64,000 bases of DNA from a phage: the NCBI GenBank assembly GCA_024672275.1, contig GCA_024672275.1_4536.1. One strand, given 5' to 3'. The notes beneath the pieces are model-generated. The model searched no databases. It was given only the letters and a program-made list of their open reading frames with translations, and had not been told where the DNA came from. The first letter of the stretch is position 1; the number at the start of each line of letters is the position of its first letter. A program made the translations under genes and the position numbers. Positions 1,673-24,856 of the stretch are shown here, in pieces.

Positions 1673-1733
1673 TTGACAACGTTTTTTAATCTGATAAGAT
1701 GTATCACATAGGGCGGCGGAATACTTCCCCGCC
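1673..1733 (+). promoter_or_regulatory. sigma70-type promoter + GC hairpin cassette
   Basis: TTGACA 1673-1678, N16, TGn-TAAGAT 1695-1700, hairpin GGCGGCGGAA-TAC-TTCCCCGCC 1711-1733. Confidence 0.7.
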
Positions 1734-1754
1734 AAAACAAAAAAGGGTAACACA

Positions 1755-2117: not shown

Positions 2118-2123
2118 AAACGG

Positions 2124-2183
2124 TTGACACTGTTTAAACTTCTGGTATAGTTTACCACATAGGGCGGGAAGTGGTTTCCCGCC
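2124..2183 (+). promoter_or_regulatory. sigma70-type promoter + GC hairpin cassette
   Basis: TTGACA 2124-2129, N16, TGn-TATAGT 2146-2151, hairpin GGCGGGAA-GTGGT-TTCCCGCC 2162-2183. Confidence 0.7.
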
Positions 2184-2205
2184 AACAATGAAAAAGGTTA
2201 TCATC

Positions 2206-10450: not shown

Positions 10451-10479
10451 CAGGGCGCACCAAGCGCCCTTTCTTTTTG
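10451..10479 (+). terminator. rho-independent terminator
   Basis: AGGGCGC-ACCAA-GCGCCCT + TTTCTTTTT; identical to 4745-4772; closes the + strand early-like array. Confidence 0.7.
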
Positions 10480-12057
10480 CCCGAACAATGTTGATAGCTT
10501 TCGCCTATGAAAAACCGACACAGAACAAAATTGAATAAATCGCGGTATCGAGCTAATCAACCATTAAACGAATAACCATACCTCCCAGGGTAACAGGCTG
10601 TTAGAGAGCCATTTATAGCGGTTAAAATCGATCAACAACCAACAACAAACCATCAAAAACACCCTTTTACCTCCTTTCTAGTGCAATGATAACCATTATC
10701 ATCTATACATGATTATATATGCAATATAAGTGCATAACTATAATGTTGATAATAGTTCGCAACAACTAACTAACCAACAACCTAAAACAATAAGCAAACT
10801 AATTATAATCAAAGGAATAATAGCAAGATGATTGATAACGACAAACAATCAAACCATGATGAATACTAAGCAAGATAACGATAACACGACAAAACAACCA
10901 ACTAACGAACAATAACAAACGAAATCATTAAAATAATAACTATTGCCATAATAGTGACTGAATGAATCATTACAAAACGAATCATTCCCAAGATCATCAT
11001 TAGCACGCTATGCCGGACACATAGCGAGCTAATAATAAGCCAACTACACCCCAACAATCATAACCATCGGTGATGGTTATTTCTTGTTACTGCGTAGCTT
11101 GCAATAATTGCAAGCGTAATGACGCTTACACTTATTGCGCTGGCTTATTATTAGCATTATATGTAATTACCAAGATCATAACATTAGCGCAATAACAATA
11201 ATCATTGTAATTGTTACAAGATGAGATTATTAGCATGGCAATAATTATTGGGGGGCAATGGGAGGATGATTATCATCATTCCGATACATTGCACACTATG
11301 CACATAATAGAATAAAAGTCAATAATTTTGGGGCGAAATGTTACCGCCACGGGCGGGAATGTTGAGCACTAAGAAAAGAGATAAACCTTAATCATGGGGG
11401 CGTAAATATCCGAGGATTGCCAACGGCGATCCGGTAGGATGTTGAGCAAGTTTTCTTAAACGTAAATAAAATCAGAAAATTCTTGATTTATTTTAGTTTT
11501 TATGTTAATAAACGTTTAAATAATAATCATTCTCATATGAATAATAGTCCGTCTGTCATGCGCGGGATCAGTTGACATTGTTCCGTCATATGATGAAGTT
11601 GCCAAACCATTGATAAATAAGCGTTTGTGTGATTTATAATCAAGTGGCCCACCTTGTCGCTATGTTGGCATGAGCCTTGCATAAGTCATTGAATACGAAT
11701 GATAATTATTCTCATTCGCATGATATTTGGGAATTGTCGCTGCGTGGACCTGACGGCCCGAAAATTCGCGTTAAGCACTTCTTACGTATGCGCCATGATT
11801 TTTGCCATATCATATTGATTCTATTAGATATTCTTGCCATGATTGCCATGAAACAGGGTGTGTCGAAATAATCTCTCCCCGTAGATATTTTGGGTTACTT
11901 TTTATACAAGAGTGGGGTGTCAAAAATAATCGATATATATGGGATAATTAATAGGAATCCCCTATGGTAATTCGATTGTAATTGCCGAAGATTGATCGTA
12001 TGATGTTGGTGATTGATGATTGCCATGAAAGATGGCTAACGATGAGAGGAGATTGTC
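10480..12057. other. ORF-free, strand-skewed, repeat-rich spacer between gene modules
   Basis: No credible ORF; 10600-11000 is A+C-rich with CAACAA/AAC repeats; ATTAGC/AATAAT repeats 10980-11260; direct repeats GGAATGTTGAGCA (11358, 11428), TTGCCATGAAA and GTGTC(G/A)AAA..AATC (11838-11870, 11913-12030). Confidence 0.5.
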
Positions 12058-12402
12058 ATGCAAGAGAGTAAAAATGTTCCCTTGAGTAGCTTACGTCTAA
12101 TGAAGTTTTACAAAGCTTGGCTTGCTGGTGAGGTAGAAGGTCACACAACGAGTGGTTTGTGCATATGTCTGATTAAGTATGTAGAGGGAACATACCCTGA
12201 TGAACTGTTACCTCGTCTACAACAGGAGATGAAATCACAGTTTATTAGTGCAGGATTGGATTACAATTTCCCGTTTAATGAAGGTGGTTATGAAGAATAC
12301 ACCTTCGAACATAAAAAACTTATTTGCCATAAAAACAAACATCGTATACAATGGGTGCTAGATAGAATTCAGGATTACGAAGGAGAGAAAAATGACAAAT
12401 AG
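12058..12402 (+). CDS. paralog family member 1 (FY..W / GLC.CL / PF / WV.DR motifs), 114 aa
   Basis: RBS GAGAGGAG + ATG; shares conserved motif set with 12392, 17031, 20375, 23213, 24518. Confidence 0.65.
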   Translation: MQESKNVPLSSLRLMKFYKAWLAGEVEGHTTSGLCICLIKYVEGTYPDELLPRLQQEMKSQFISAGLDYNFPFNEGGYEEYTFEHKKLICHKNKHRIQWVLDRIQDYEGEKNDK

Positions 12403-12760
12403 TATTCCGTTGAGCAGTGCAACATTGCTTCGCTTCTATAAAGCATGGATTGCCAACTATCCTGCAATGAATCGCACAACGAGTGGCTTATGTGGTTGTC
12501 TGGTAGATTATGTAAATGATTTTGTTGGTGAGACAACTAGAGAAGAAGATAGAAGATGGCGGGATAGTTTGTTAGACCGTTTGAAATATGAAATGAGGAA
12601 ACAATTTACATGTGCAGGGCTGGACTACAATCTTCCGTTCAATGCAGATTGCATGGATTACCTTTCAGAGTGTATAAACTTGGCGTGTCATACCAACACG
12701 TTACGTCTTCAATGGGTGAAAGATCGCATTGAAGATGCAAATAATTCTTGCATTGAATAA
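12392..12760 (+). CDS. paralog family member 2, 122 aa
   Basis: RBS GAAGGAGAG + ATG overlapping previous gene; motifs LRFYKAW, GLCGCL, PFN, LQWVKDR. Confidence 0.65.
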   Translation: MTNSIPLSSATLLRFYKAWIANYPAMNRTTSGLCGCLVDYVNDFVGETTREEDRRWRDSLLDRLKYEMRKQFTCAGLDYNLPFNADCMDYLSECINLACHTNTLRLQWVKDRIEDANNSCIE

Positions 12761-12819
12761 AAATGTCTGTATGATAGTTTGCATACCGCGCATAACAGAT
12801 AGCCAATGAGGAGATTGAA

Positions 12820-13029
12820 ATGTCAAATATGAAAACTGTATCCTTGTATTTAGCTAACACTGATCGTGTGCACACCCTTGCTAATGCAAGTCGTGTACTC
12901 GTGCAGTTCCGAAACTTAGCACCGTCCGTTGTGACAGGCAGTGAAACGTGTGTGATCGATTTCATCAATGAATATTTCCACGGGAATCCTGTTGCTCGTC
13001 ACTTCGTGGAGAATATGAAAGATGCATAA
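12820..13029 (+). CDS. hypothetical protein (69 aa)
   Basis: RBS GAGGAG + ATG; ORF track. Confidence 0.5.
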   Translation: MSNMKTVSLYLANTDRVHTLANASRVLVQFRNLAPSVVTGSETCVIDFINEYFHGNPVARHFVENMKDA

Positions 13030-13252
13030 CATGAAACGTATGAAAATTCGTATTGAGAATGATGGTGGTTATAAAGGATTGGCACATGCAAAATTTCCAC
13101 TTGTGTTGGAAGCTACAGTGGAATACAGTGGGCTTGCTCATGTGCGATTCTCGAAGATGATGGAAGTGCAGGACTGGTTTTGGGACGAGATAGATGCACG
13201 AGAAGGGGAAGATTATGTTTTCTTTCCTCACGAATATGAAATTGTCTATTAA
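13022..13252 (+). CDS. hypothetical protein (76 aa, start uncertain)
   Basis: ORF track; alternative in-frame ATGs at 13031/13040; overlaps upstream stop. Confidence 0.45.
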   Translation: MHNMKRMKIRIENDGGYKGLAHAKFPLVLEATVEYSGLAHVRFSKMMEVQDWFWDEIDAREGEDYVFFPHEYEIVY

Positions 13253-13264
13253 AGGTTGTGTGCA

Positions 13265-13504
13265 ATGATCACACCACAACAGAACGAAGCAGCAATGGAT
13301 CTTCTTGATAGTTTGTATTTCGATAATTGGTACTCCGAATGTGAATGGATGAATATGCAAACTCTGAAAGAGAAAACAGAAGCGTTGATTACAGTAGATC
13401 AATTTCTTGCAGAGACGGAAAGAATGAACTATGATATGGCATCTCGCGCACGACGCGTTTCCATTTTCAATAGAATGTTAGCATTATGGGGAGGTAGAAA
13501 ATGA
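13265..13504 (+). CDS. hypothetical protein (79 aa)
   Basis: Internal ATG 13265 with RBS AAAGG (track start is TTG 13256). Confidence 0.55.
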   Translation: MITPQQNEAAMDLLDSLYFDNWYSECEWMNMQTLKEKTEALITVDQFLAETERMNYDMASRARRVSIFNRMLALWGGRK

Positions 13505-13962
13505 GACAATTCACTATACTGGCAGCTTATGTGCAATGTGTTCACGATTATGTTAGTGCTCATACAGGTTTGCTGGAAGTTACCAGTAAAATTGAAGGTA
13601 ATATGGGTACTGTCTGTGTGCAACATACTTTATCCAATGTGCCGTTTAAAGTGTTCACTGTTGTAGCTGCCGATTACAATCGTGTAGATGTGCGTTTCTT
13701 GGATCATAATTTTCGTAACGCACTAGATAATATCGAAGATTATCTTCCCGTGAAACCTTTGTCATTTCCACCGAGTCGTGCAAATAATGTAGTGACAAAC
13801 CTTAATGAAAGGAATGTGACTATGCACAAAAAAGTCCGTCAACTGAAAACGCTGATGGAAATGCAAGAAGAGATTGAAAAAGAACTGAAAGAAGATTTTG
13901 GTATGCTTCCAAAAGACGCTTTGAAATGGTATGATGAGTTAGGAGGAGAAAGTTATGAATAA
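13501..13962 (+). CDS. hypothetical protein (153 aa)
   Basis: RBS GGGAGG + ATG overlapping upstream stop (ATGA). Confidence 0.6.
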   Translation: MRQFTILAAYVQCVHDYVSAHTGLLEVTSKIEGNMGTVCVQHTLSNVPFKVFTVVAADYNRVDVRFLDHNFRNALDNIEDYLPVKPLSFPPSRANNVVTNLNERNVTMHKKVRQLKTLMEMQEEIEKELKEDFGMLPKDALKWYDELGGESYE

Positions 13963-14149
13963 AGGAACTACTGTATATTTAGTGACTAAGAACACCCCAG
14001 GGTGGAGCCAATGCAGCACTGTTCCTTACAAGATCTGTGCAACATTAGAACTAGCACAACGCGCAGAAGCAGAAGTGGATGCCATGCAACACAGCTATGG
14101 TGAGATCATTCCTTTTACTCTTGAACAAGAAGGAGCACATCATGTTTAA
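13955..14149 (+). CDS. hypothetical protein (64 aa) consisting of a repeated about 50-aa domain
   Basis: RBS AGGAGGAG + ATG; domain VYLV..C..V...A...A...A....E shared with C-termini of 14142 and 14603 genes. Confidence 0.55.
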   Translation: MNKGTTVYLVTKNTPGWSQCSTVPYKICATLELAQRAEAEVDAMQHSYGEIIPFTLEQEGAHHV

Positions 14150-14597
14150 AGTAGGGTTTACTTATAAATTCAAAAGCGTTGCTGACCAAGGAGATATGGC
14201 AACACATGACAAAGCAAATATTGCTGTTTGCCAAGCGATTGGAAACGAAGTTTTCAAAGTTATGAATACAGATGATAAGTATGGTCATGTTCTTGAGTTT
14301 TATATCAATGGTACCCTCTATACAGCAGGTGTTACCCCAGGGTTTAATTCGTATACTTATTTGATTGATAACGAAGAATTTAAATATTTTGAAGAAGTAA
14401 AGGAGGAAACAATGGGTAAAGCAGAACCACAATGGCATGTTGTGATCGTAGGATCAGAGTGTGTAGATGTTTGTTCTAGTTTTGAAAAAGCTTCTGAAGT
14501 CGCTACAAAAGCTAAGAAGGATTATCCGTCGAAGACGGTTGAGATTTACGCTCGTGTTGCAGTAGCAAACGCCACAATCACTATTGATAAGGAGTAA
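14142..14597 (+). CDS. hypothetical protein (151 aa), MFK-start paralog with shared C-terminal domain
   Basis: Internal ATG 14142 with RBS GAAGGAG; N-terminus MFKVGFTYKF like next two genes. Confidence 0.6.
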   Translation: MFKVGFTYKFKSVADQGDMATHDKANIAVCQAIGNEVFKVMNTDDKYGHVLEFYINGTLYTAGVTPGFNSYTYLIDNEEFKYFEEVKEETMGKAEPQWHVVIVGSECVDVCSSFEKASEVATKAKKDYPSKTVEIYARVAVANATITIDKE

Positions 14598-14602
14598 AGC
14601 CA

Positions 14603-15061
14603 ATGTTCAAAGAAGGTCATGTCTACCGTTTCCAGGATGAAGATTATATGCGACTATATTCTACCTTTGATAACAGTATTGCTGCTATCATTGGAGAGAA
14701 TTTTTTCGAGGTGTTGAGCACTGATGCAAATGGTAATATCTTGTCAATGGTTGTAATAGGTATGAGAGACGGTATTATCACTGCTGGTGACGGGGATCGT
14801 TACATAATCAATTCTGCTCATATAGATTATTTTGTTGATGGTGGTGTTCGTGGTGGTCGTGGAAAACCCCAAGAAGAACCTGTTGATACAACAAAAGAAG
14901 AGTGGTATGTTGTAATGACTGATGACACCTGTATTTCTGGATTTGAAAGTTATGAAGAAGCCTTGAAAGAAGCAGCAGAGCATAAAATGGCTAATCCTAC
15001 AGAAGAGGTTGAAGTTTATAAACGTTTGGTTGTTGCTACCATCGGCGTATCTTTTGTTTAA
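14603..15061 (+). CDS. hypothetical protein (152 aa), MFK-start paralog
   Basis: RBS AAGGAG + ATG; C-terminal WYVVMTDD..C...FESYEEA domain parallels 14142 gene. Confidence 0.6.
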   Translation: MFKEGHVYRFQDEDYMRLYSTFDNSIAAIIGENFFEVLSTDANGNILSMVVIGMRDGIITAGDGDRYIINSAHIDYFVDGGVRGGRGKPQEEPVDTTKEEWYVVMTDDTCISGFESYEEALKEAAEHKMANPTEEVEVYKRLVVATIGVSFV

Positions 15062-15073
15062 AAGGGGAATGTT

Positions 15074-15511
15074 ATGTTTAAAGTTAATGCTGTTTACTGT
15101 TTCAAAAGTAAAGCTGCCTGTGAAGCTTTCTCTATGATCTCTGATGAAAATTTCAAAATGGCAGCTTTGATTGAAGGGTCTTGTTTCCGCGTCGAAGATG
15201 TTAGTGAATCAGGGTCCGTTTGCTCATTGACTTTATTGGACAGCGGAGATATTATTGAAGCTGGACAGTATCCGTTCAGGAGTTGGGAGATATTGTTAGC
15301 TCGCGGAGAGCGTAACTTTTTTATGTGCGTGTCTGCGGGGGAAGTTGTGAAAGAAACTAAAGATGTTTCTGTTTACAATTCTGAATTTATAAGTTATAGT
15401 GAGTATCAACATCTGGAAGGCATTGTTGGTCACTTGTTATCTCTGATTGACGTTGAATGTGACCTGCCTGAATCATTGAAAGAAGAGTTGAAAGCATTAG
15501 ATCTGTTATAA
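15074..15511 (+). CDS. hypothetical protein (145 aa), MFK-start
   Basis: RBS AAAGGGGAA + ATG; ORF track. Confidence 0.6.
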   Translation: MFKVNAVYCFKSKAACEAFSMISDENFKMAALIEGSCFRVEDVSESGSVCSLTLLDSGDIIEAGQYPFRSWEILLARGERNFFMCVSAGEVVKETKDVSVYNSEFISYSEYQHLEGIVGHLLSLIDVECDLPESLKEELKALDLL

Positions 15512-15538
15512 TGTTTCGCACAACGAAAGGAGAATAAG

Positions 15539-15838
15539 ATGAATCTGACCGAACAGTTACGCCGTATTGCAAAAGAAGCTTCCTTCAACTTCCCTGTTGA
15601 AGAAGTGATCGAGACATGCTTTGCTGAAGCACGAGCGGGAAACTCTTCAAGAAATTTCACGCCATCTGATTTTGGTCTGAATAATTCTCCCACTCACCCA
15701 GAGCAGATCTACAATCAGGTGAAGTGGATGGATGAAGCAGTAGCAATTCTTCGTGAGCGTGGGCTTGTTGTTTATAAAGAAATGGATCTGAACGGGGCAT
15801 ACGAGTGGATCACTATTGATTGGTCCGAGGTGAAATGA
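15539..15838 (+). CDS. hypothetical protein (99 aa)
   Basis: RBS AAAGGAGAA + ATG; ORF track. Confidence 0.6.
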   Translation: MNLTEQLRRIAKEASFNFPVEEVIETCFAEARAGNSSRNFTPSDFGLNNSPTHPEQIYNQVKWMDEAVAILRERGLVVYKEMDLNGAYEWITIDWSEVK

Positions 15839-16071
15839 TGAAAGGTAACAAGATGAAAGTTAATCAAGTGCCGAGCGCATACACTTTGTGGCTTGCGCGA
15901 GCGTTACACCAGACGATCAAAGACCCTAAGAAGCCAATGAAGAGCGGGAAGAAGTTTATGTCTAAGGGCAAAACAACCTTTGGCTTCACTCGTATGTCTG
16001 TTAAGATGAAAAGGCTGGGGTATAAGCCAAACTATGCGCGTTACCCTTCCGAATATAACTGGTTCGACTAA
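15835..16071 (+). CDS. hypothetical basic protein (78 aa)
   Basis: Internal ATG 15835 with RBS GAGGTG overlapping upstream stop; K/R-rich. Confidence 0.5.
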   Translation: MMKGNKMKVNQVPSAYTLWLARALHQTIKDPKKPMKSGKKFMSKGKTTFGFTRMSVKMKRLGYKPNYARYPSEYNWFD

Positions 16072-16083
16072 AAGGAGAAAGCA

Positions 16084-16557
16084 ATGGCAGGTTTGAAACT
16101 GGAAATGTTGACAAAGCAAGAATTTGTTCCCGAACATGGTGAAACTTACATTGCTTTCTTGATCAGTGATTTTTATGGGGATTTAGAATACGTTGAACTG
16201 GAATGTGAATTTCACTACCAGATGATCGACGCAGAAACTGGCTATTGCCTTTCTATGTCTGCGGTGTATAATGGGGATAACGGGATTCCTTTTCATACCG
16301 CAATGCGTTACGAAGCGAAAAACCGATTCAAACTTCTCACCGAAGAAGAGAAAGAGACATACAGGTATCACGAAGAAGAGGATCAACGCTTCTGGTGGGA
16401 GAAAACTTGGTTCCTGTCTGATCGCCGTAATCTCCAGATACACCCAGAAGAACTGGATGAAATGTCTATCGGGATTATGAAGAAGAAAGACTTCATGTTC
16501 CAGGTGAGAGAAGCTAATAAGTTCCGTATTGCAATTAAAGAGGAGAACAAAACATGA
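16084..16557 (+). CDS. hypothetical protein (157 aa)
   Basis: RBS AAAGGAGAAAG + ATG; ORF track. Confidence 0.6.
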   Translation: MAGLKLEMLTKQEFVPEHGETYIAFLISDFYGDLEYVELECEFHYQMIDAETGYCLSMSAVYNGDNGIPFHTAMRYEAKNRFKLLTEEEKETYRYHEEEDQRFWWEKTWFLSDRRNLQIHPEELDEMSIGIMKKKDFMFQVREANKFRIAIKEENKT

Positions 16558-16838
16558 AAACATCTATTCGCGTAAAACATGATCCAAACAGCAGTTACCC
16601 ATACGCGGATGTTGAACGTCATGAAGGAGACTATTACACCATAAAACGTAAAGTCCCAACTGATACAGGGTTTAACTTTGATGTTATTGCGCTGGATGAT
16701 CAAGGTGTTGATAATCTGGTGAATGCATTACTCGCATTGAAGGAAGTGCGATATGAAAATCAGACTAAAGGTAAAGTGGCTTTCGATTCTTGTGATCGTT
16801 TAGCCGAAGAGATTGCCGAATGGCGTGACACTAACTAA
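16554..16838 (+). CDS. hypothetical protein (94 aa)
   Basis: RBS AGAGGAG + ATG overlapping upstream stop. Confidence 0.6.
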   Translation: MKTSIRVKHDPNSSYPYADVERHEGDYYTIKRKVPTDTGFNFDVIALDDQGVDNLVNALLALKEVRYENQTKGKVAFDSCDRLAEEIAEWRDTN

Positions 16839-16853
16839 AACAGGAGAAAGATT

Positions 16854-17030
16854 ATGGCTACTTTTCAACAATTGAAAGATGTTTCACGTTTAGTAAGAAA
16901 AATCCGAGAAGCAGACGCTGCTGTGCGGAATGCATTAACGCCAGCAGAGCGTGAAGATCTTGAAGAGGAGGTGAAAACAGCCGAGAATGCTTTTGCTGTG
17001 TATCTTTCAACACTGTATACAGGAGGTTAA
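16854..17030 (+). CDS. hypothetical small protein (58 aa)
   Basis: RBS ACAGGAGAAAG + ATG; stop TAA abuts ATG 17031; below ORF-track cutoff. Confidence 0.5.
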   Translation: MATFQQLKDVSRLVRKIREADAAVRNALTPAEREDLEEEVKTAENAFAVYLSTLYTGG

Positions 17031-17345
17031 ATGTCAGAAGAACTTAAAGAATTTTATCAGGCATATCATAACTGGCTATTAGCTGGTGCTCCAGATAATA
17101 ATCCTTTCTGGCATGATAAAGGATTATGTAGTTGCCTCTACCTTTGGACTGGTGGTTACGATGATCTAAATTATGAAATGCAAATGCAATTTCGAGAAGC
17201 AGGGTTGTCTGAAGAATACCCGTTTGATGACGGAGACTGGTTTAAATATGATTTTGCACAAAGAAACGGGCTATTGCATTTGAATGCTGCCCGTATAAAA
17301 TGGGTAAAAGATCATGCTACACAGGAGGATGTGCAATGCCAATAG
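17031..17345 (+). CDS. paralog family member 3, 104 aa
   Basis: RBS ACAGGAGG + ATG; motifs LKEFYQAYHNWL, GLCSCL, PFD, RIKWVKDH. Confidence 0.65.
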   Translation: MSEELKEFYQAYHNWLLAGAPDNNPFWHDKGLCSCLYLWTGGYDDLNYEMQMQFREAGLSEEYPFDDGDWFKYDFAQRNGLLHLNAARIKWVKDHATQEDVQCQ

Positions 17346-17536
17346 TGTTTAGTTTCTTGATAATTGTTATGGTTGTTCTTTTCGCGGCATGGCTTTGGGA
17401 TTTTGACCCAGGAGCAGCGCAGCAAAGAGCTACAGACTGGAAAGAACAATGTATTGTGCTCAAACATGAACGAAATGCGGAGAAATTTCTTGACCTAGAG
17501 TGTGATCGCCTTGTAAGATACAAGCAAGATAAATAA
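17336..17536 (+). CDS. small membrane protein (66 aa)
   Basis: Internal ATG 17336 with RBS CAGGAGGAT; N-terminal TM helix PIVFSFLIIVMVVLFAAWLW. Confidence 0.55.
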   Translation: MPIVFSFLIIVMVVLFAAWLWDFDPGAAQQRATDWKEQCIVLKHERNAEKFLDLECDRLVRYKQDK

Positions 17537-17550
17537 CCTTGAGGTGCAAA

Positions 17551-17739
17551 ATGGTAATTGAGATTAAACTTGAATATGCTGGGGCTGTTGCTCTGATCGC
17601 ACAAACGCTTGGAGCAAAGATTGAAGAAGTGTATATCAATGCCTGGAGCGTAGAGATTGATGTTCCTATGGACAACATTGCTAATCGCTTGCTGGTGGCA
17701 GAGTGTGAACGCACCAACATAATCTACAAAGGAGCATAA
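17551..17739 (+). CDS. hypothetical protein (62 aa)
   Basis: Internal ATG 17551 with RBS GAGGTG. Confidence 0.5.
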   Translation: MVIEIKLEYAGAVALIAQTLGAKIEEVYINAWSVEIDVPMDNIANRLLVAECERTNIIYKGA

Positions 17740-17740
17740 T

Positions 17741-17962
17741 ATGAAAATTAGAGTTTGCGATGTATTGGGTTATGTTGGTTTTGAGAATGTTCAGATTCCT
17801 TTTGTTGTTGAAGCACATCTTGTTAGCGATGACATGACTACATTCTTTGTTACGATAGAAGAAATGTCCAAAGTTGAGGGATGGGAGTGGTTTGAAGAAG
17901 ATGTTTGGGAAGGTTGTGATTACGTATTTTTCTCTGATGAAGTGAATGTTCTTTCGGAGTAG
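17741..17962 (+). CDS. hypothetical acidic protein (73 aa)
   Basis: RBS AAAGGAG + ATG; ORF track. Confidence 0.55.
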   Translation: MKIRVCDVLGYVGFENVQIPFVVEAHLVSDDMTTFFVTIEEMSKVEGWEWFEEDVWEGCDYVFFSDEVNVLSE

Positions 17963-17964
17963 GT

Positions 17965-18171
17965 ATGTCTTGTTTTACAAAAGCAGTGTCCATATGTAAG
18001 AAACAATATGAAAGTGATTACGGAATATTTAATATTCCAGTGGATCATATAGAGTATTGTTCATGTGGTGGCAGAATGAAGAAAACAGTGATTTATGCGG
18101 ATAATGGAGATGAACTTGTTCCGGTTATGGTTTGCAAAGCTTGTCATTCTGTTAAAACATTAAAAGCGTAA
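17965..18171 (+). CDS. zinc-ribbon small protein (68 aa)
   Basis: Two Cys pairs (C-x-C-G-G ... C-K-A-C); ATG 17965. Confidence 0.5.
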   Translation: MSCFTKAVSICKKQYESDYGIFNIPVDHIEYCSCGGRMKKTVIYADNGDELVPVMVCKACHSVKTLKA

Positions 18172-18174
18172 GGA

Positions 18175-18215
18175 GTCGGGACACCCGACGATTGGAGCTA
18201 AAAATTTTGCGTACA
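18175..18215 (+). terminator. putative hairpin terminator
   Basis: Hairpin GTCGGG-ACAC-CCGAC right after stop 18171, followed downstream by A/T run; precedes gene with own RBS. Confidence 0.3.
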
Positions 18216-18266
18216 ACCCTTTCCGCCCAACAGGGGCGCGTCGGGTAAATAAAGAGGAGAGTTTAT

Positions 18267-18665
18267 ATGAAAAAGATCATTGTAGGTTTATTGTTACTCA
18301 TTGCATCACTTGGAACAGCAAATGCGTCTCAAGTTTATGAGTGTGTGTCAGAGGTGGTTGTTAAAAATCTGAAAGGTGAAGTTATTTCTGGTCCTAAGAA
18401 AATGGCTTCTGTTGTCATTAACAAAGATAACTCCTTTATCCTTAAAAATTCAGGTGGTGCTTTGATGAGTGGCATTCTGCAATACACAGGAGAAAAAAGT
18501 AAAGATGGTAGTGCTATGTACGGTTCACAACAGTTTATTGGCACTACTGAAGTAGTAATGATGCGCACAGAGTATCGAGACACTTTGGCTTGGTTTGCAT
18601 TTCTAAAAAATGATAAAACAATAACGAATGTTCTTACTCTAGAAGCTGATTGTACGCAACGATAA
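18267..18665 (+). CDS. secreted protein or lipoprotein (132 aa)
   Basis: Sec signal peptide MKKIIVGLLLLIASLGTANA; RBS AAAGAGGAG. Confidence 0.6.
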   Translation: MKKIIVGLLLLIASLGTANASQVYECVSEVVVKNLKGEVISGPKKMASVVINKDNSFILKNSGGALMSGILQYTGEKSKDGSAMYGSQQFIGTTEVVMMRTEYRDTLAWFAFLKNDKTITNVLTLEADCTQR

Positions 18666-18675
18666 GGGGGTATTT

Positions 18676-19131
18676 ATGACTAAAATGCGACATTATGCTG
18701 TAAACTGCAACGATGTTTGGCGTTTATGTCCTGATGATCCGACAGAAGGCACATTTGTAAGATATGAGGATTATAAAGAGTTATCGGATGCTGTGATCGC
18801 ATTGTTAACTGATATCCGTTCACGTTATCCAGGACAAGATTTCACTTGCCCTCACATCAAACTTCTTGCCCTTCTGGTAGAAGGGGAGGAACAAGTGGAA
18901 GATGGCTTCAAGCGTGTAGAGTATCAAGGTGAAACTTTAGAGGTTCCTGAATTTGTTAATTATATTGCAACAGATTCGAATGGCGAGCGTTATGGTTACA
19001 GTCATAAACCGGAGATTCCAGATTTCGCTTATGCGTGGCGTATTCCTTATCAAGTTTTTAATGCTGCGGATTACTGGTATTTAGGAGAAGGAGATAGCCG
19101 TAATTGGCGTGACTCCTTGGCTCAGGTTTAA
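18676..19131 (+). CDS. hypothetical protein (151 aa)
   Basis: RBS AAGGGGG + ATG; ORF track. Confidence 0.6.
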   Translation: MTKMRHYAVNCNDVWRLCPDDPTEGTFVRYEDYKELSDAVIALLTDIRSRYPGQDFTCPHIKLLALLVEGEEQVEDGFKRVEYQGETLEVPEFVNYIATDSNGERYGYSHKPEIPDFAYAWRIPYQVFNAADYWYLGEGDSRNWRDSLAQV

Positions 19132-19135
19132 TACT

Positions 19136-19399
19136 ATGAAAGAAACATTACCAGCAGCCTACCGTCTGAATGATGAACGTATTTGGGAGTGGACCGACGT
19201 TTCTTGTTTTTACCCTGAAATAGTTCAATATTGGCGAGCGAAAGGGTGTGTTGTAGTTATCAACCCTTGTGGACCAGTAGATGAAGATTGTTTGTATCTC
19301 AATGGAAAATGGCACAGTTATTGTCGCTGGCCTTTTGAGTGGATGTGTAAAGAAGATCTCCCAGAGGGTTGGGAGTATCCTAAAGCAAATAGGAGATAA
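19136..19399 (+). CDS. hypothetical Cys/Trp-rich protein (87 aa)
   Basis: Internal ATG 19136 (track start is GTG 19109 inside previous gene); weak RBS. Confidence 0.45.
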   Translation: MKETLPAAYRLNDERIWEWTDVSCFYPEIVQYWRAKGCVVVINPCGPVDEDCLYLNGKWHSYCRWPFEWMCKEDLPEGWEYPKANRR

Positions 19400-19400
19400 T

Positions 19401-19763
19401 ATGTCTAAAGATTTTGTTGAAGTATTTGTCAAAGATGAAGAAACTGGTTTAGGCACGGGTTTCATTTGTGAAGAAACTTTTAAGCGTGAACAAGAAAAAG
19501 CTATTCTTATGCACCGCTATGATCATGCACTAGAACAATGGAAAAATGCAGAACAAAAATGCAAAAACCTTTACGCAGAAAATAGAAAACTACAAGATCA
19601 AATGGAGTTGTTAGCTATCAGTTTACGATCTCTCATTTTGGCTGTAGAAGATGGCTTTAAAAATCCAGATGGTTTTCCTGTGAGCGATATTGAACATGAT
19701 TTGTATCTTGCTCGTGGTGCTTACTTTTATGTTAAACAGAAGTCTGTAGAAGGAGAGAAATGA
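19401..19763 (+). CDS. hypothetical coiled-coil protein (120 aa)
   Basis: Internal ATG 19401 with RBS AGGAGATAAT. Confidence 0.55.
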   Translation: MSKDFVEVFVKDEETGLGTGFICEETFKREQEKAILMHRYDHALEQWKNAEQKCKNLYAENRKLQDQMELLAISLRSLILAVEDGFKNPDGFPVSDIEHDLYLARGAYFYVKQKSVEGEK

Positions 19764-19936
19764 TGGAAGAAAAACTGGAACGTATTATCGAGTTAGCCAT
19801 GTCTATTGGCTACGACGATTGTTTTCTCCAAACCATTGGAGAATCAGAGAAAGATTACGACTCTTGGGTGAAAGAGTTGGAAGAACTCAAAACTTCCTTG
19901 ATTGCTGACTTTGCTGAAGCAGAGGAGGATGAATAA
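19763..19936 (+). CDS. hypothetical acidic small protein (57 aa)
   Basis: ATG overlapping upstream TGA (TGATG), RBS AAGGAGAG; ends in TAATG overlap with next gene. Confidence 0.5.
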   Translation: MEEKLERIIELAMSIGYDDCFLQTIGESEKDYDSWVKELEELKTSLIADFAEAEEDE

Positions 19937-20163
19937 TGTCGGATTATAACTGGTATGAACTTGAAGCTGTTTGTCAGTTTTATGATTCAATAGTTCTACG
20001 TGATCCAATCTGTCAAGAATTAAGTCGCCGTGCAAGTGCATTGGCAATCCGTGTTAAAATAAATGGTTGGGACGCAGATCTGGAAAAAGAATTGGAATTC
20101 CTTTTGGAAACAACTCGTGTCTTCCGTAAAGTATTCCCTCAATGGTTTAAGATGGAGGAATAA
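19936..20163 (+). CDS. hypothetical protein (75 aa)
   Basis: ATG 19936 with RBS GAGGAGGATGAA; ORF track. Confidence 0.55.
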   Translation: MSDYNWYELEAVCQFYDSIVLRDPICQELSRRASALAIRVKINGWDADLEKELEFLLETTRVFRKVFPQWFKMEE

Positions 20164-20165
20164 TC

Positions 20166-20378
20166 ATGTGGATTGTCCGTCTTAAGTATGATGGCAAGTT
20201 TCCGTGGGAGAAAGATGTTTGTGCCTGTGATTCGGCAGCACATGCCAAAGCAGCGGGTCAGGCAGTAGTTGACATGTATAACAACACTTCCGTTGATCCA
20301 GAAATGGGAGGTGTTACAATGAGCATGTTCACTTACTATTCTTTTGAGGTTTACTATCATGAAGGAGAGTGGAAATGA
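20166..20378 (+). CDS. hypothetical protein (70 aa)
   Basis: RBS GATGGAGGAA + ATG; ORF track. Confidence 0.55.
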   Translation: MWIVRLKYDGKFPWEKDVCACDSAAHAKAAGQAVVDMYNNTSVDPEMGGVTMSMFTYYSFEVYYHEGEWK

Positions 20379-20695
20379 GCGAAGAACTATTAACATTTTA
20401 CCGCACGTATTTGGCATGGTTGGAAGCTGGTGCTCCTGAAGGTGAACCGTTCACCCGTTGCACAGGATTGTGCTCGAACCTCTATGATTTTTACGATATA
20501 GGGGAAAACGAACGATACGAACCTGTACTGGATGAAATGCATGAGCAGTTCTACCGCAAAGGTTTGGTTATGGTGTTGCCTTTCAACAGTAATTTTGGAA
20601 AGTACACCTTAGAAGCGGAAAGAAGCCGTTGTCATTTGAATGTGGATCGTGTGAACTGGGTAAAAGAACGTGTAGCAGAAGAAATAATTGGTTGA
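20375..20695 (+). CDS. paralog family member 4, 106 aa
   Basis: Internal ATG 20375 with RBS GAAGGAGAG; motifs LLTFYRTYLAWL, GLCSNL, PFN, RVNWVKER. Confidence 0.65.
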   Translation: MSEELLTFYRTYLAWLEAGAPEGEPFTRCTGLCSNLYDFYDIGENERYEPVLDEMHEQFYRKGLVMVLPFNSNFGKYTLEAERSRCHLNVDRVNWVKERVAEEIIG

Positions 20696-20720
20696 CAGAA
20701 GGATCTATCTTTGTCACAAT
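20692..20720 (+). promoter_or_regulatory. putative internal promoter
   Basis: TTGACA 20692-20697 (overlaps stop of upstream gene), N17, CACAAT; shares TTGACAGAAG start with 21160 element. Confidence 0.35.
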
Positions 20721-20749
20721 CATCTCATCGAAACAGAGAGGAGAAAATC

Positions 20750-21163
20750 ATGAAACAGTTTATCTGCACCCGTTCCACTAACAGTGATATCCTTGTAGGT
20801 AAGGTTATCAAAGGAGAACTCTTCCATGCAAACGGTAAGAAATATATTCTGCTGAAAGATTCTTTCAACGGGGAATATCCGCGCTGCACTTTCTTCAATT
20901 ACAACACTCCGTTTGCTTTAGAAGGAGATGCTTGGGAATGGGCTGAACTCAATCCTTGTTGTGAGGAAGAAGAATCTATGTTCTTAGGTTTAAACGTTTA
21001 CCGTGTAGATTACACCATGTGCGGAGCGGAACATTCTGTTCGCGTAGAAGCCGAATCCAAACTACAAGCACCTTTCAAGGCGGGATTGACTTTGGGTCAT
21101 TGTTTGGCAAACATTGAAGATGTTGTGATCCAAAAGGTTGTTTTAGAGAAAGAGGCTATTTGA
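20750..21163 (+). CDS. hypothetical protein (137 aa)
   Basis: Internal ATG 20750 with RBS GAGAGGAGAAAA. Confidence 0.6.
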   Translation: MKQFICTRSTNSDILVGKVIKGELFHANGKKYILLKDSFNGEYPRCTFFNYNTPFALEGDAWEWAELNPCCEEEESMFLGLNVYRVDYTMCGAEHSVRVEAESKLQAPFKAGLTLGHCLANIEDVVIQKVVLEKEAI

Positions 21164-21188
21164 CAGAAGACGGCACAATATTTAAATA
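21160..21188 (+). promoter_or_regulatory. putative internal promoter
   Basis: TTGACA 21160-21165, N17, TAAATA 21183-21188. Confidence 0.35.
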
Positions 21189-21215
21189 TAAAGATTAACC
21201 ACAAAGGAGATAGAT

Positions 21216-21515
21216 ATGCAAGTTGAAGACCTGATCAAAATTTTGAATGAAGCCAAAGAGAAAGGTGCTATCAAGGACTGGAAACGTGAAACAAGTGAAG
21301 ACCTATCTCACTGTTGCCGAGAATTTTACATCGAAGGTATTGCTGACGATCATTATATTATCGAATGGTATATCAACTTAATGACTCTTAAGCACGGTTC
21401 GTTTGAGGTTTGGTTTGATGACATTGATGTAAATGGTTTTCATCCTGGCTATAAAATCGCTATGCAGTTGTCTTATCGTAGAGAAGTTGTAGCACATTTG
21501 GGTTTACATAATTAA
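21216..21515 (+). CDS. hypothetical protein (99 aa)
   Basis: RBS AAAGGAGA + ATG; ORF track. Confidence 0.6.
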   Translation: MQVEDLIKILNEAKEKGAIKDWKRETSEDLSHCCREFYIEGIADDHYIIEWYINLMTLKHGSFEVWFDDIDVNGFHPGYKIAMQLSYRREVVAHLGLHN

Positions 21516-21525
21516 GGAGAAAAGA

Positions 21526-21849
21526 ATGCAAGCAGTTGTTAACGAAGCTATTATGAACTTATCCTTCTTGTTAGCTGGTTTAGGAGGTGTTCTCATAGGT
21601 TTGGCTCTTATCTGGTGTATTCGTCGATTAATCGGGTACCGACAAAAAGGTGTTTCATGTTTTGTATCTTACAATTTTACAACTGCTTACAGCAATGAGG
21701 TTGGATCTGGCAATGCTCAAGCATTTTTACCAACATATCCTCCTACGGTGGAAGATATTCGAAACTTGGAAGTAGAACTTATGGGACTAAGTGATAACTA
21801 TACATCTCTCGTTATTCAAAATATTTTTCGACTAAAACAGGAGGCGTGA
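21526..21849 (+). CDS. membrane protein (107 aa)
   Basis: RBS TAAGGAGAAAAG + ATG; N-terminal TM helix LSFLLAGLGGVLIGLALIW. Confidence 0.6.
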   Translation: MQAVVNEAIMNLSFLLAGLGGVLIGLALIWCIRRLIGYRQKGVSCFVSYNFTTAYSNEVGSGNAQAFLPTYPPTVEDIRNLEVELMGLSDNYTSLVIQNIFRLKQEA

Positions 21850-22062
21850 ATGAAGGCACATTACCCTCATCCCTTTGATCCTAAAAACAAAGCCGTAATT
21901 CTTCGTCAGTGGCAACGGGTTTGTCGTACTAAATGTCCAATTAATAGCCAACACGATGTGGACAAGGACTATCTTGGGACATTTGTTGAATACACTTACA
22001 TAGACAAAAACAAGCGTAAACAACATGTCGAGGAATACTGCTTAAGAGTAGAATGGCTGTAA
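21850..22062 (+). CDS. hypothetical basic protein (70 aa)
   Basis: RBS CAGGAGG + ATG; ORF track. Confidence 0.55.
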   Translation: MKAHYPHPFDPKNKAVILRQWQRVCRTKCPINSQHDVDKDYLGTFVEYTYIDKNKRKQHVEEYCLRVEWL

Positions 22063-22074
22063 ATAATAAATACC

Positions 22075-22103
22075 TTGACAAGTGTTTATTCGTTTTGTAA
22101 AGT
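22075..22103 (+). promoter_or_regulatory. sigma70-type promoter upstream of recombinase gene
   Basis: TTGACA 22075-22080, N17, TAAAGT 22098-22103. Confidence 0.45.
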
Positions 22104-22132
22104 GAGAATACAGCAATGGTTTAGGAGTGGTT

Positions 22133-22804
22133 ATGAAAAAGTTTGTTGTTTACAGTCGTCTTTCTAAACAGAAAAAAGGTGAGGCACAATATGGTATGGA
22201 GAGCCAAGAGAACGATATCCGTTACTTCTTAGACTCTGTGCCTGATGCGGAAGTTATTGGTCAATTTTCTGAATACTATTCGGGTAAGGGCGATTGGAAG
22301 CAACGTAAAGAACTGGTTAAAGCGGTTGAAATGTGTAAAGCTACCGGAGCAACTTTATTGGTAGCTAAAGTTGACCGCTTGGGTCGTAACAACGCCTCCG
22401 TAGCAACTCTTCTGGAGATGATCGATGTTAAGATAGCCATCATGCCAGACGCAGATAAAATGGTTATACAGCTTCTATCTGTTCTGGCTGAACAAGAAGT
22501 TAGAGGTATTGCTGATCGTATTAAAAAGGGTCTTGCTGTAGCAAAAAGTAAAGGTGTTTTATTAGGTAGTGCTAATCCTAAAACTGCCGCTGCACGTAGA
22601 AAAGGAAAAATGGAATACAACTCTGTTAAAGCAGACGCTTTTGCAGAGACATTCCGTGAACGCTTGGAGATCCTTAGAGATTTAAATACACCTTACAAAA
22701 CTATTGCTGAAAAATTCAATAGTAAGAAAATAGCAACAGCACGTGGTGGTAAATGGGATGCTAAAACTGTTTCTCGTTTGTGTGCCAGACTTAACATTAA
22801 ATAG
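22133..22804 (+). CDS. small serine recombinase (resolvase/invertase family), 223 aa
   Basis: N-terminal catalytic motif VYSRLS (Ser nucleophile) and LLVAKVDRLGRN box; C-terminal HTH-like segment; ATG 22133 with RBS TAGGAGTGG. Confidence 0.75.
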   Translation: MKKFVVYSRLSKQKKGEAQYGMESQENDIRYFLDSVPDAEVIGQFSEYYSGKGDWKQRKELVKAVEMCKATGATLLVAKVDRLGRNNASVATLLEMIDVKIAIMPDADKMVIQLLSVLAEQEVRGIADRIKKGLAVAKSKGVLLGSANPKTAAARRKGKMEYNSVKADAFAETFRERLEILRDLNTPYKTIAEKFNSKKIATARGGKWDAKTVSRLCARLNIK

Positions 22805-22812
22805 GAGAGGAT

Positions 22813-23223
22813 ATGAAACAAGAAAATGAATCTGTAGATCACTTAATCATGCTGTCAGCCCTTTTTGCCGGATGGGACGTATTTTTTGAAAATTTGTTCA
22901 ATTCTGCTACAGATGGTTCCGATTTTATGCGGCAGTTTAAACGACGAACTGTTGAGGACTATGCTTTCTATTCAGGTCGGATTGAAAAAGGTTACGAAGA
23001 TACAAATACAACACTCACCATTAAAGTTTTAGATGTGATGTTTAGTGTTATAGATGCTATCGACGAAAGTCTTCCGATCCTAGACAATTGTAATACGAAA
23101 GCCTATGTTTACAAAATAGCTCGTGCTTATGTGTCTGCAAACAGTTGTCTTCTTTCCACGCAGATTGCCGTGAACAATCTTGCCAACTTGTTCGACGAAG
23201 GAGAAACTTTTTATGACAATTGA
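22813..23223 (+). CDS. hypothetical protein (136 aa)
   Basis: RBS ATAGGAGAGG + ATG; ORF track. Confidence 0.6.
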   Translation: MKQENESVDHLIMLSALFAGWDVFFENLFNSATDGSDFMRQFKRRTVEDYAFYSGRIEKGYEDTNTTLTIKVLDVMFSVIDAIDESLPILDNCNTKAYVYKIARAYVSANSCLLSTQIAVNNLANLFDEGETFYDN

Positions 23224-23578
23224 TTTGAAGTGTAAAAGGATTCTTTTAGATTTCTATAATAATTGGTTAGAACACCTCCGTCTCTTTCCAAGAGAAAGTG
23301 GTTACGCTGATGTTGGCTTATGCCGAGGTCTACGTATGTATATAAGTGATGAATTTCGGGCCGAGCATTCTTTAGCATATTCTGTTTATGGTATGCAATT
23401 AGCCAGTTTTGAAAACGCTGGTTTAGATACAACTTTCCCATTTAACACAGCAAAATCTTTTGAGCAAGAGTGTAAGGAAAAACGTTGCATGTTTAATGAA
23501 AAACGTGTACAGTGGGTTAAGGATCGAGTTAAACAATTGGAACAAGAGTTGGATTTCTTCTATGATGAGGCAGAATAA
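23213..23578 (+). CDS. paralog family member 5, 121 aa
   Basis: Internal ATG 23213 with RBS GAAGGAGAAA; motifs LLDFYNNWL, GLCRGL, PFN, RVQWVKDR. Confidence 0.65.
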   Translation: MTIDLKCKRILLDFYNNWLEHLRLFPRESGYADVGLCRGLRMYISDEFRAEHSLAYSVYGMQLASFENAGLDTTFPFNTAKSFEQECKEKRCMFNEKRVQWVKDRVKQLEQELDFFYDEAE

Positions 23579-23850
23579 TGGATAGACAAACCTTAAAAAC
23601 AATGGCAGATGCTACCAATTCCCCGTACTTTGAAAAAGTAAGTAAATTGGTAGCTCAAGCCGCAGAGGAAGGATATTATAACATAAACATCCACAACCCA
23701 AGTCTTATACTAGAAATGCCAAGTGATAAGAAGATACAAGAGAGTATTTGTGAAGGTATTGTTAGTTACTGGCGCGAGCGTGGGTGTGGTGCAAACATGG
23801 CTTTAGACAGTGCAAACATTGTAAGATATATAAATATTTCTTGGGGGTGA
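23578..23850 (+). CDS. hypothetical protein (90 aa)
   Basis: ATG overlapping upstream stop (TAATG), RBS GAGGCAGAA; ORF track. Confidence 0.55.
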   Translation: MDRQTLKTMADATNSPYFEKVSKLVAQAAEEGYYNINIHNPSLILEMPSDKKIQESICEGIVSYWRERGCGANMALDSANIVRYINISWG

Positions 23851-23854
23851 TTTT

Positions 23855-24466
23855 ATGATTCAATGCACTCATATCCAAATTACTTGGAGAGATGAACTTT
23901 ACCATTTGGGACAATTTACTGTAGGGGAAACATACCCTATCATTAAACATAATCCTAACATCGCAAACTTTGACAAGATGGTTCTTGTTGAGGACGATCT
24001 AGGTCAAACTTATTCTTTAGATCTAAAATATCCGTTTTCTTACGGCTACGATTGGATCGTTACTTTTGAAGACGTGGAGGAAAATAAAACAATGAACGAA
24101 AAAAATTCTTGGTATTATCGTTGTGAACTGCCGCCAGTAGGTGAAAAGGTTATCTTTGTTCCTGATTTGGAAAGATATTCTTGGGACAGTTCTTATTCTG
24201 TTCCTAAAGAAGGCACCGAAGTTGAAGTTATTGCACATCGCACAACTTCGCATGGTAACGACGTAGCAGTTGTTTTCTGGGATGATGAAGGTGCTGCTTG
24301 TGCAGGTGGCTTTGTTGCAGGTAATTTTGAACCCCTGCCAGATCCTTTAAAGGAGGCAATTTTAGGCGTAGCTTCTTTTGGACTCTCTTACACGTCTGCA
24401 CAAGAGATCGTAGAAGGTATTTTAAACGGTACCGTTCCAAACGAAATTTTTAAACAGATTAAATAA
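23855..24466 (+). CDS. hypothetical protein (203 aa)
   Basis: RBS GGGGGTGA + ATG; ORF track. Confidence 0.6.
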   Translation: MIQCTHIQITWRDELYHLGQFTVGETYPIIKHNPNIANFDKMVLVEDDLGQTYSLDLKYPFSYGYDWIVTFEDVEENKTMNEKNSWYYRCELPPVGEKVIFVPDLERYSWDSSYSVPKEGTEVEVIAHRTTSHGNDVAVVFWDDEGAACAGGFVAGNFEPLPDPLKEAILGVASFGLSYTSAQEIVEGILNGTVPNEIFKQIK

Positions 24467-24470
24467 CAGT

Positions 24471-24500
24471 TGCACCCCGTTCTGCGGGGTGTTATTGTAT
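24471..24500 (+). terminator. rho-independent terminator
   Basis: Hairpin CACCCCG-TTCTG-CGGGGTG followed by TTATTGTAT. Confidence 0.55.
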
Positions 24501-24517
24501 ATGTAAAGGAGGCGCTA

Positions 24518-24856
24518 ATGTATTACACTGAAGACTACATACTGTATAACTTTTTTAAAGGTTGGTTAGAATGGGCGGAAAAAGCTCCTGTTGGAGATTG
24601 TGTTTTTCCTTGGGATTCTCGTCAAGGTTTGTGTCGTTGTTTGGAAGATTGGCTTATAACCACAAACTACAACTCAGAAACTAAGAAATCTACATCACAG
24701 AGACTAAAAATGTTATTTGAAGAAGATGGTTTAGATCCGATTTATCCTTTCGGTGAGGAAAGTTTCCACAATGGTCTTTTCCTTGGCACTCAACATTATG
24801 ATAAAGATCGTGTAGATTGGGTAAAAGAAAAGGTAGCACAGTATGAATGGGGTTAA
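24518..24856 (+). CDS. paralog family member 6, 112 aa
   Basis: Internal ATG 24518 with RBS AAAGGAGG; motifs ILYNFFKGWLEW, GLCRCL, PFG, RVDWVKEK. Confidence 0.65.
   Translation: MYYTEDYILYNFFKGWLEWAEKAPVGDCVFPWDSRQGLCRCLEDWLITTNYNSETKKSTSQRLKMLFEEDGLDPIYPFGEESFHNGLFLGTQHYDKDRVDWVKEKVAQYEWG

Follow-up and report, generated by a model that had tools for sequence, protein, structure and literature searches.

A large, essentially phage-restricted family of small proteins with a predicted five-helix fold, present in six divergent copies in a Phapecoctavirus

The DNA analyzed here, hereafter called the window, is a stretch of 64,000 nucleotides (nt) of phage sequence (GenBank assembly GCA_024672275.1, contig GCA_024672275.1_4536.1), and the subject of this report is a family of six small genes dispersed between positions 12,058 and 24,856 (Table 1). 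This region of 13 kilobases (kb) is 96-98% identical to about 50 Phapecoctavirus genomes, and the window is assigned on this basis to the genus of phAPEC8/rV5-like E. coli myoviruses (about 150 kb), subfamily Stephanstirmvirinae, in agreement with an earlier reading of the letters alone (the sequence-only reading), which had placed the family in a virus. The six open reading frames (ORFs) listed in that reading are all found on the + strand with the same limits, and its ATG codons are the real starts: each is preceded at 5-9 nt by a GGAG, AGGAG or GAAGGAG Shine-Dalgarno (SD) sequence, which the longer GTG/TTG alternatives lack, and a terminator-like hairpin just upstream of member 6 would fall inside the GTG/TTG-extended version of this gene. 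The proteins are acidic (isoelectric point (pI) 4.5-6.1, net charge -2 to -10) and hydrophilic; inspection of the six sequences by eye, no predictor having been run, showed neither a signal peptide nor a membrane segment.

Table 1. The six genes of the family and other features of the window mentioned in the text (aa, amino acids; E, expectation value).
Feature	Positions	Strand	Remarks
Member 1	12058..12402	+	114 aa; first gene past the 1.6-kb non-coding stretch; SD GAGAGGAG; 11-nt overlap with member 2; phrog_2510 E 1.4e-25
Member 2	12392..12760	+	122 aa; 7 Cys; 11-residue insertion, helices 2-3; phrog_2510 E 2.4e-25
Member 3	17031..17345	+	104 aa, pI 4.5; closest relative a T1-like (Drexlerviridae) phage protein, 49% identity; phrog_2510 E 8e-29
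Member 4	20375..20695	+	106 aa; variable slot; basis of the structure model; phrog_2510 E 1.4e-30
Member 5	23213..23578	+	121 aa; 11-nt overlap with upstream 136-aa gene; phrog_2510 E 2.2e-26
Member 6	24518..24856	+	112 aa; most divergent copy, 'PFGE...TQH.D' subfamily; phrog_2510 E 5.6e-27
Terminator-like hairpin	24472..24492		Upstream of member 6
Non-coding stretch	10471..12057		1.6 kb, AT-rich; between the terminator and member 1; context only
Terminator	10452..10470		Strong; before the non-coding stretch
Sigma-70-like promoter matches (examples)	11843..11872; 11976..12004		Putative; within the non-coding stretch
Serine recombinase/resolvase	22127..22804		Pfam Resolvase, E 5e-18
Second paralogue set	14079..14597; 14603..15061; 15074..15511		Three adjacent genes, 145-172 aa
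Third paralogue pair	13022..13252; 17741..17962		About 75 aa; 37% identical, E 6e-11
Weak paralogue pair	56419..57048; 62751..63356	-	Outside the block; 28% identical, E 1e-7
Weak paralogue pair	1550..1780; 2040..2207	-	Outside the block; 35% identical, E 7e-6

The six products form a true paralogue family, as had been proposed, and three kinds of comparison agree on this point. In BLASTP each of the 15 possible pairs gives a significant match (identity 23-46%; E from 1e-31 to 5e-3, for a database of 20,000 residues), with 46% identity between members 1 and 2; the MAFFT alignment of the six proteins contains 14 invariant columns (L14, F17, G33, L34, C35, L38, F62, G66, L67, P72, F73, R96, W99 and V100 in member-1 numbering); and the phrog_2510 profile, which is independent of the six, matches each of them over its full length (E 1e-25 to 1e-30). 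The formal alignment recovered in order the five motifs described in the sequence-only reading, together with the strong divergence reported outside them, while two details of the motif set did not hold, the leading D/E of the third motif being present in four of the six copies and the terminal W-V-K being W-V-L in member 1. A hidden Markov model (HMM) of the six, run against all 668 stop-to-stop ORFs of the window, retrieved exactly six members, the next match having E 0.05, and in an all-versus-all BLAST of the window ORFs this family was the largest paralogue cluster.

The family extends far beyond the window. An exhaustive HMM search, a check of the kind proposed with the sequence-only reading, returned 2,225 cluster representatives (clusters at 50% identity) with E<=1e-3 and 1,456 under the stricter limit of E<=1e-10; word-indexed homologue searches found 38-76 clusters only, and the second of them, with 136 sequences, added neither names nor domains. 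About 25 of the top 150 HMM matches are two-domain tandem fusions, and a three-domain fusion is found in gp339/gp341 of the jumbo Burkholderia phages BcepSaruman and BcepSauron; this fusion and proteins of Klebsiella/Escherichia T1-like phages are among the named family members, all of which are phage proteins. By tblastn against 50,697 phage records the family was detected in 250, which comprise rV5/phAPEC8/phi92-like myoviruses, T1-like Drexlerviridae, the T7-like RSB1, N4 (gp3) and many N4-like phages of Achromobacter, Erwinia and Rhizobium, and a Foldseek search of BFVD added JG068, PhiW-14 and Pectobacterium phages and, more weakly, the Pseudomonas phages KPP10 and CHA_P1, all with 'uncharacterized' proteins. 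Only one of 72,556 plasmids carries the family, E. coli plasmid NZ_CP148392.1 (10441-11118); its annotated genes include a Phd/Doc toxin-antitoxin, a dUTPase and, about 4 kb from the family gene, a DUF2829 protein, DUF2829 being the Tad2-type domain, and this gene content suggests a phage-plasmid. A scan of bacterial genomes gave no relatives, with a narrow pattern that makes it a weak test, so that absence from chromosomes or prophages is not established. The family is thus very large and essentially phage-restricted.

The absence of a characterized domain behind the motif set, as had been suspected, was borne out. No match above the curated threshold was obtained in Pfam-A or NCBIfam, the best being at chance level (DUF6149, E 0.076; ARMC9_LisH, E 0.014); PADLOC-DB gave 0 families at E<=1 for all six proteins; and no relative was found by sequence in the PDB, even with a 136-sequence profile. 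A match to caspase-3 p12 (E about 0.5) was a chance one and disappeared with the deeper profile. The six proteins belong to phrog_2510, to which phrog_6418, phrog_27059 and phrog_2176 are weaker relatives; PHROGs gives phrog_2510 no function, name or structure, and no paper mentioning it was met in the literature searched. The sequence cluster is therefore already catalogued, as an uncharacterized family, and does not represent a new kind of system; as far as could be found, its size, the inclusion of N4 gp3, the Cys / Pro-Phe / Arg signature, the lack of a solved structural counterpart and the recurrent arrays and fusions have not been described before.

Structure prediction, also among the checks proposed earlier, gave a confident result. 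The AlphaFold2 model of member 4, computed from a 28-sequence alignment, has a predicted local distance difference test (pLDDT) of 94.7 and a predicted template modelling score (pTM) of 0.86, and consists of five helices (3-17, 32-41, 45-61, 74-82 and 90-105). The same five helices, with pLDDT >90, are predicted for domain 1 of P0124, a natural tandem relative that is 27% identical. A fold search of the PDB with the model found no neighbour, and the BFVD matches (template modelling score 0.8+) are all 'uncharacterized' phage proteins. Each gene is thus predicted with high confidence to encode an acidic, soluble, single-domain five-helix bundle of about 100 aa, without a solved structural relative.

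Conservation over 212 domains of the family defines a sharp signature. Pro70 is present in 100% of the domains, Cys34 and Phe71 in 99%, Arg92 in 98%, Trp16 and Gly32 in 96% and Phe9 in 95%; Asn89 (81%), Glu55 (77%), Gln59 (75%), His87 (73%, with Tyr in 15%) and Asn36 (70%) follow. The signature residues proper (G-L-C, P-F, R-x-x-W-V in helix 5 and F/W in helix 1) are invariant in six of the six window proteins and reach 95-100% over the 212 domains, and are accompanied by a Trp/Phe core and by well-conserved Asn, Glu, Gln and His/Tyr. In the model Cys34 lies in the first turn of helix 2, within G-L-C; Pro-Phe is located in the loop before helix 4; and His-x-Asn-x-x-Arg leads into helix 5, with the Arg at its start. 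Variability is greatest in columns 38-54, where the helix 2-3 loop differs in length as well, and in columns 73-86, comprising helix 4 and the following loop. The sequence-only reading had taken variation as the main signal of the family, and this emphasis does not stand: Cys, Arg, Asn, Glu and Gln are strictly conserved over more than 200 divergent domains, which argues for a shared chemical site and not for pure surface diversification.

Two more specific readings of these residues were discarded. A structural zinc site (CxC...CH) is suggested by C34, C36, C86 and H87 in members 1 and 2, but only 9 of the 212 domains have all four residues, C36 being conserved in 13% and C86 in 33% of the family. 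The R-x(4-6)-H motif that, within an all-alpha domain of about 110 aa, marks HEPN proteins was looked for and not found.

The evolutionary behaviour of the six genes was analyzed by comparing the window with phAPEC8_ev052 and ETEC-TG, using the pairwise NG86 omega (dN/dS, the ratio of nonsynonymous to synonymous substitution rates). Five of the six orthologues in phAPEC8_ev052, all but the one in slot 4, are 96.5-99.2% identical with dN/dS 0.03-0.17, and all six in ETEC-TG are 95-100% identical with dN/dS 0-0.31, values in the same range as those of the flanking genes; with 1-9 substitutions per class, too few for site-level selection, they are statements at the gene level only. About 60 phage records contain member 6 at 95-99% identity. 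The six copies are accordingly read as individually conserved under purifying selection at the gene level, and the ongoing sequence diversification expected of an arms race, which the sequence-only reading had proposed to look for in dN/dS across related phages, was not observed.

Nor is a recent wave of duplication supported. A near relationship exists between members 1 and 2 only; when the family matches of the other members are ranked, the first co-resident paralogue comes 44th for member 3, 74th for member 4, 23rd for member 5 and 98th for member 6, and member 3 is closer to the T1-like phage protein of Table 1 than to member 4 (40% identity). By these rankings the six copies represent old, anciently diverged subfamilies, and most of them resemble homologues from unrelated phages more than they resemble the other copies.

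At the same time the set of copies is not fixed. Slot 4 is occupied in phAPEC8_ev052 by a 53%-identical variant, and ETEC-TG carries both variants and thus seven copies; five copies lie within 10 kb in a mosaic relative (L012), at positions that differ in part, and copy number among relatives ranges from 5 to 7 per genome. In relatives, recombination between members 1 and 2 has produced single chimeric genes: P0002 (124 aa), which stands alone in its slot on a 143-kb metagenomic phage contig (L014, 3001-3375), consists of residues 1-11 of member 1 followed by member 2, and a second chimera, P0004, joins residues 1-70 of member 1 to the C-terminus of member 2. An independent amplification of the family is found on an unrelated 79-kb soil-phage contig (L006; JGI 3300009011), where four adjacent genes at 5177-6826 contain six domain copies; this array lies 1.4 kb downstream of a NAMPT / RNA ligase / HD / AAA_33 kinase / Macro-domain cluster, in which the Pfam families NAMPT, RNA ligase and Macro resemble NAD-salvage and RNA-repair functions. 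Gain and loss of copies, slot replacement and recombination speak in favour of an accessory and dynamic family.

The six genes lie within a long same-strand array of small genes, from about 12 to 29 kb, with positive GC skew, and member 1 opens this array immediately after the AT-rich non-coding stretch. This stretch contains sigma-70-like promoter matches as well as short direct and inverted repeats, and is probably the start of the transcription unit that carries the family; it may be an early promoter region, or lie near a physical end of the genome. Rfam and tRNA scans of the window, the non-coding stretch included, gave no match.

Expression of the six genes early in infection can be inferred from the position of their homologues. 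In coliphage N4 the family is represented by gp3 (ABK54374.1, 104 aa), a protein of the same size, recognized by tblastn with member 4 (E 3e-7) and by the family HMM (E 5.9e-22), and present as a single copy, unlike the six of the window phage. The N4 gp3 gene is located at 1.2 kb from the left end of the genome, in the stretch that separates gp2 from the RNAPII genes gp15/16, and gp1, gp2, gp15 and gp16 are described as early products (PMC4496689); on the function of gp3 itself nothing was found in the literature searched. In phi92 (Justusliebigvirus, also Stephanstirmvirinae), whose physical ends are annotated, the syntenic array begins just inside the left terminal repeat; the homologues gp006 and gp010 are located in this left-arm block at 2.3-3.9 kb from the repeat, gp006 being 2.3 kb from the end. 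Unlike the window, phi92 has two copies only in its first 50 kb, and its gp010 is extended at the C-terminus by about 80 aa that gave no Pfam match. In N4-like and T7-like phages the distance of the homologues from the left end is 0.4-3.6 kb. Since N4 gp3 belongs to a stretch of early genes, homologues occur at left ends, phi92 gp006 is near the terminal repeat and member 1 comes first after a terminator and a gap rich in promoter matches, the six genes would be expressed early as well. On paralogue families in rV5-like phages nothing was found in the literature searched.

Each of the six overlaps or directly adjoins a small gene, unrelated and different in every case, and is translationally coupled to it. 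All the neighbours scanned fall into PHROGs of unknown function, and the Pfam scan gave no match among them besides the serine recombinase, which is placed inside the early block; correspondingly, the GenBank genes under the 13-kb match are all 'hypothetical' except for a resolvase. Homologues of this recombinase are mis-annotated in several GenBank relatives as 'methionine ABC transporter ATP-binding protein'. The block includes a second paralogue set of three adjacent genes, each product starting with MFK.G..Y.F, which have phrog_3710 and phrog_622 in common; the first two are 26% identical (E 9e-14), and homologues of the set are labelled 'goF mRNA metabolism modulator'-like in one GenBank record. 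The products of a third pair start with MKIR and end with ...DYVFF...., and two weak pairs are located outside the block. Among the records matching the window over 13 kb at 96-98% identity are also MG065650.1 ('Campylobacter phage B15') and OP562383.1 ('Acinetobacter phage vB_AbaM_ABPW7'); in view of their identity to an E. coli Phapecoctavirus, either their host labels are wrong or the samples were contaminated, probably.

These data are brought together in a model that is favoured here, its probability as a whole being judged a little short of even: the family would be an early, cytoplasmic, oligomeric module whose Cys/Arg site deals with a conserved small molecule or host component, whose variable surfaces provide specificities, and which serves host takeover or counter-defence. 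The proteins would be made in the first minutes of infection. Their working unit would be a dimer or higher oligomer, because by Rosetta-stone reasoning the frequent two- and three-fold tandem fusions and the overlapping pair of members 1 and 2 point in this direction; a tendency to oligomers or arrays is supported by the tandem fusions, by the six domains in four adjacent genes of the soil-phage contig and by the five copies of the mosaic relative. The conserved site, centred on Cys and Arg, would bind, or act upon, a target shared by all Proteobacteria, be it a small molecule, for example a nucleotide, or a conserved host component, since phages of alpha-, beta- and gammaproteobacteria alike retain Cys, Arg, Asn, Glu and Gln, which argues for a universal ligand or target rather than for a fast-evolving host protein. 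The helix 2-3 loop and the surface of helix 4 would give a distinct partner or specificity to each co-resident copy, and the multi-copy state would correspond to stable, sub-functionalized copies with occasional gain, loss and recombination, and no rapid sequence diversification. A bolder version, considered unlikely, sees in the family a new-fold effector of many virulent Proteobacteria phages, N4 included, deployed early, in which the Cys/Arg site would be a thiol enzyme centre or a binder of immune or metabolic small molecules, and arrays and fusions would yield multi-specific counter-defence from one scaffold.

Several points weigh against the favoured model. No function is assigned to the family in the databases or literature searched, and every homologue is annotated as 'hypothetical'. 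Early expression in the window phage is based on synteny and position, and no data on early transcription in Phapecoctavirus were found in the literature searched. The invariant aromatic residues and the Pro may be purely structural, Tyr replaces His87 in a part of the domains, and the grouping of Cys, Arg, Asn and His in one pocket is a candidate arrangement only. For the oligomer, domain 2 of P0124 was predicted with a pLDDT of about 50 from a shallow alignment, so that the test of packing as a pseudo-dimer was uninformative. Finally, neither gene neighbours nor domain fusions gave a clue. The six contexts inspected have no conserved annotated neighbour in common; the longer family proteins contain tandem repeats only, or regions without Pfam matches, and the sole known fusion partner is DUF551, of unknown function, which precedes the family domain at the N-terminus of Escherichia phage Av-05 gp048 (L002, 3755-4369). 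DUF551 (PF04448) is an unrelated domain, absent from the six window proteins and their neighbours in the Pfam scan; it is a portable small accessory domain of early phage regions (PMC10834534), found in lambdoid Ea22 variants, among them one of Stx phages, and in YfdS.

The sequence-only reading had seen in the six copies the pattern of a diversifying arms-race family, for example of inhibitors for variant host targets; spelled out, they would be rapidly diversifying inhibitors, each matched to one variant of a host defence protein that evolves fast. Part of this picture stands, namely the multiple copies, their strong divergence outside the motifs, the turnover of copy number, the allele replacement in slot 4, the chimeras of members 1 and 2 among close relatives, the independent arrays in other phages, one of them, metagenomic, 1.4 kb from the NAMPT / RNA ligase / HD / kinase / Macro cluster, and the place of the genes among those that enter or are expressed first, a place also taken by anti-restriction genes, T7 ocr for example. 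The likeness to T7 Ocr and ArdA, which are early anti-restriction DNA mimics, is one of position, as the leading genome end of T7-like, N4-like and phi92-like phages has the family genes among its first, and of acidity; the family proteins are far less acidic than these and have no fold match. What does not stand is rapid divergence: dN/dS is not elevated, orthologues from across the genus share 95-100% identity, the copies represent old subfamilies that unrelated phages also have, and polar residues invariant across phages of three proteobacterial classes are atypical for binders of rapidly evolving targets. Moreover, no PADLOC or known anti-defence match was obtained, and Vequintavirinae and relatives, among them relatives of the window phage, are reported in the BASEL study to be exceptionally sensitive to restriction-modification (PMC8594841). 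Inhibitors of this kind are on balance an unlikely explanation.

Somewhat less likely still is a new-fold thiol-dependent enzyme, in which Cys34 at the N-terminus of helix 2, activated by Arg92 together with Glu55 or His87, would be the nucleophile or redox centre modifying a host protein, nucleic acid or metabolite. The near-invariant Cys in a first helix turn, the Arg, the conserved Glu, Gln, Asn and His, and the wide distribution with a site chemistry kept across hosts would suit such an enzyme; but the domain is very small and all-helical, with no recognizable catalytic fold and no sequence similarity to any enzyme family, and a phage would not need six to seven copies of one enzyme unless the substrates differ. 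Judged as a Cys-His thiol hydrolase, the family keeps Cys (99%) and Asn89 (81%) better than His87 (73%), for which Tyr or Trp may substitute, and the substitution by Tyr argues against a classical Cys-His catalytic pair; the predicted all-helical fold is also unlike that of known thiol hydrolases. The same conserved polar residues, at helix N-termini, would offer a classical anion-binding geometry, and on this ground a sponge or binder of a small signalling molecule may be imagined, for example of the nucleotide second messengers of CBASS, Thoeris or Pycsar-type systems, with paralogues for different ligands. The sponges Acb2, Tad1 and Tad2 are, like the family, small, soluble, phage-restricted and widely distributed, with conserved polar residues and evidence of oligomers, and the acidic, probably oligomeric proteins studied here, with multiple divergent copies per genome, would follow the same logic. 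This is a functional analogy: the family has no sequence or fold similarity to any solved sponge or other solved structure and is not a member of the sponge families, while ligand binding and pocket geometry are proposals, and the explanation is regarded as improbable. The coupling of each copy to a different small gene, all of unknown function, might instead indicate an adaptor, chaperone or regulator for phage-encoded partners, each copy serving its neighbour, or a largely dispensable, selfishly amplified gene; yet the neighbours are not conserved across family-carrying phages, N4-like and T7-like phages have a single copy among different genes, and purifying selection argues against dispensability, which leaves little probability for either. 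Least probable of all, to the point of being nearly negligible, is a DNA-binding regulator of transcription of the early block, as the acidic charge of the six proteins argues against a DNA binder and no helix-turn-helix Pfam match was obtained.

Whichever function the favoured early module may have, the family constitutes a sizeable part of phage dark matter, with at least 2,225 clusters at 50% identity, and its carriers include model phages: N4, phi92, the rV5/phAPEC8-like therapy candidates, and T1-like and T7-like phages. It combines a confident predicted fold without a solved counterpart with a sharply defined conserved site, and its steady early position at the leading end, along with repeated amplification and fusion, makes it a well-defined candidate for a function in host takeover or counter-defence, with the single copy of N4, gp3, as a tractable point of entry. 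Since phage-therapy cocktails make use of Phapecoctavirus phages, the role of 5-7 conserved early genes is of practical interest.

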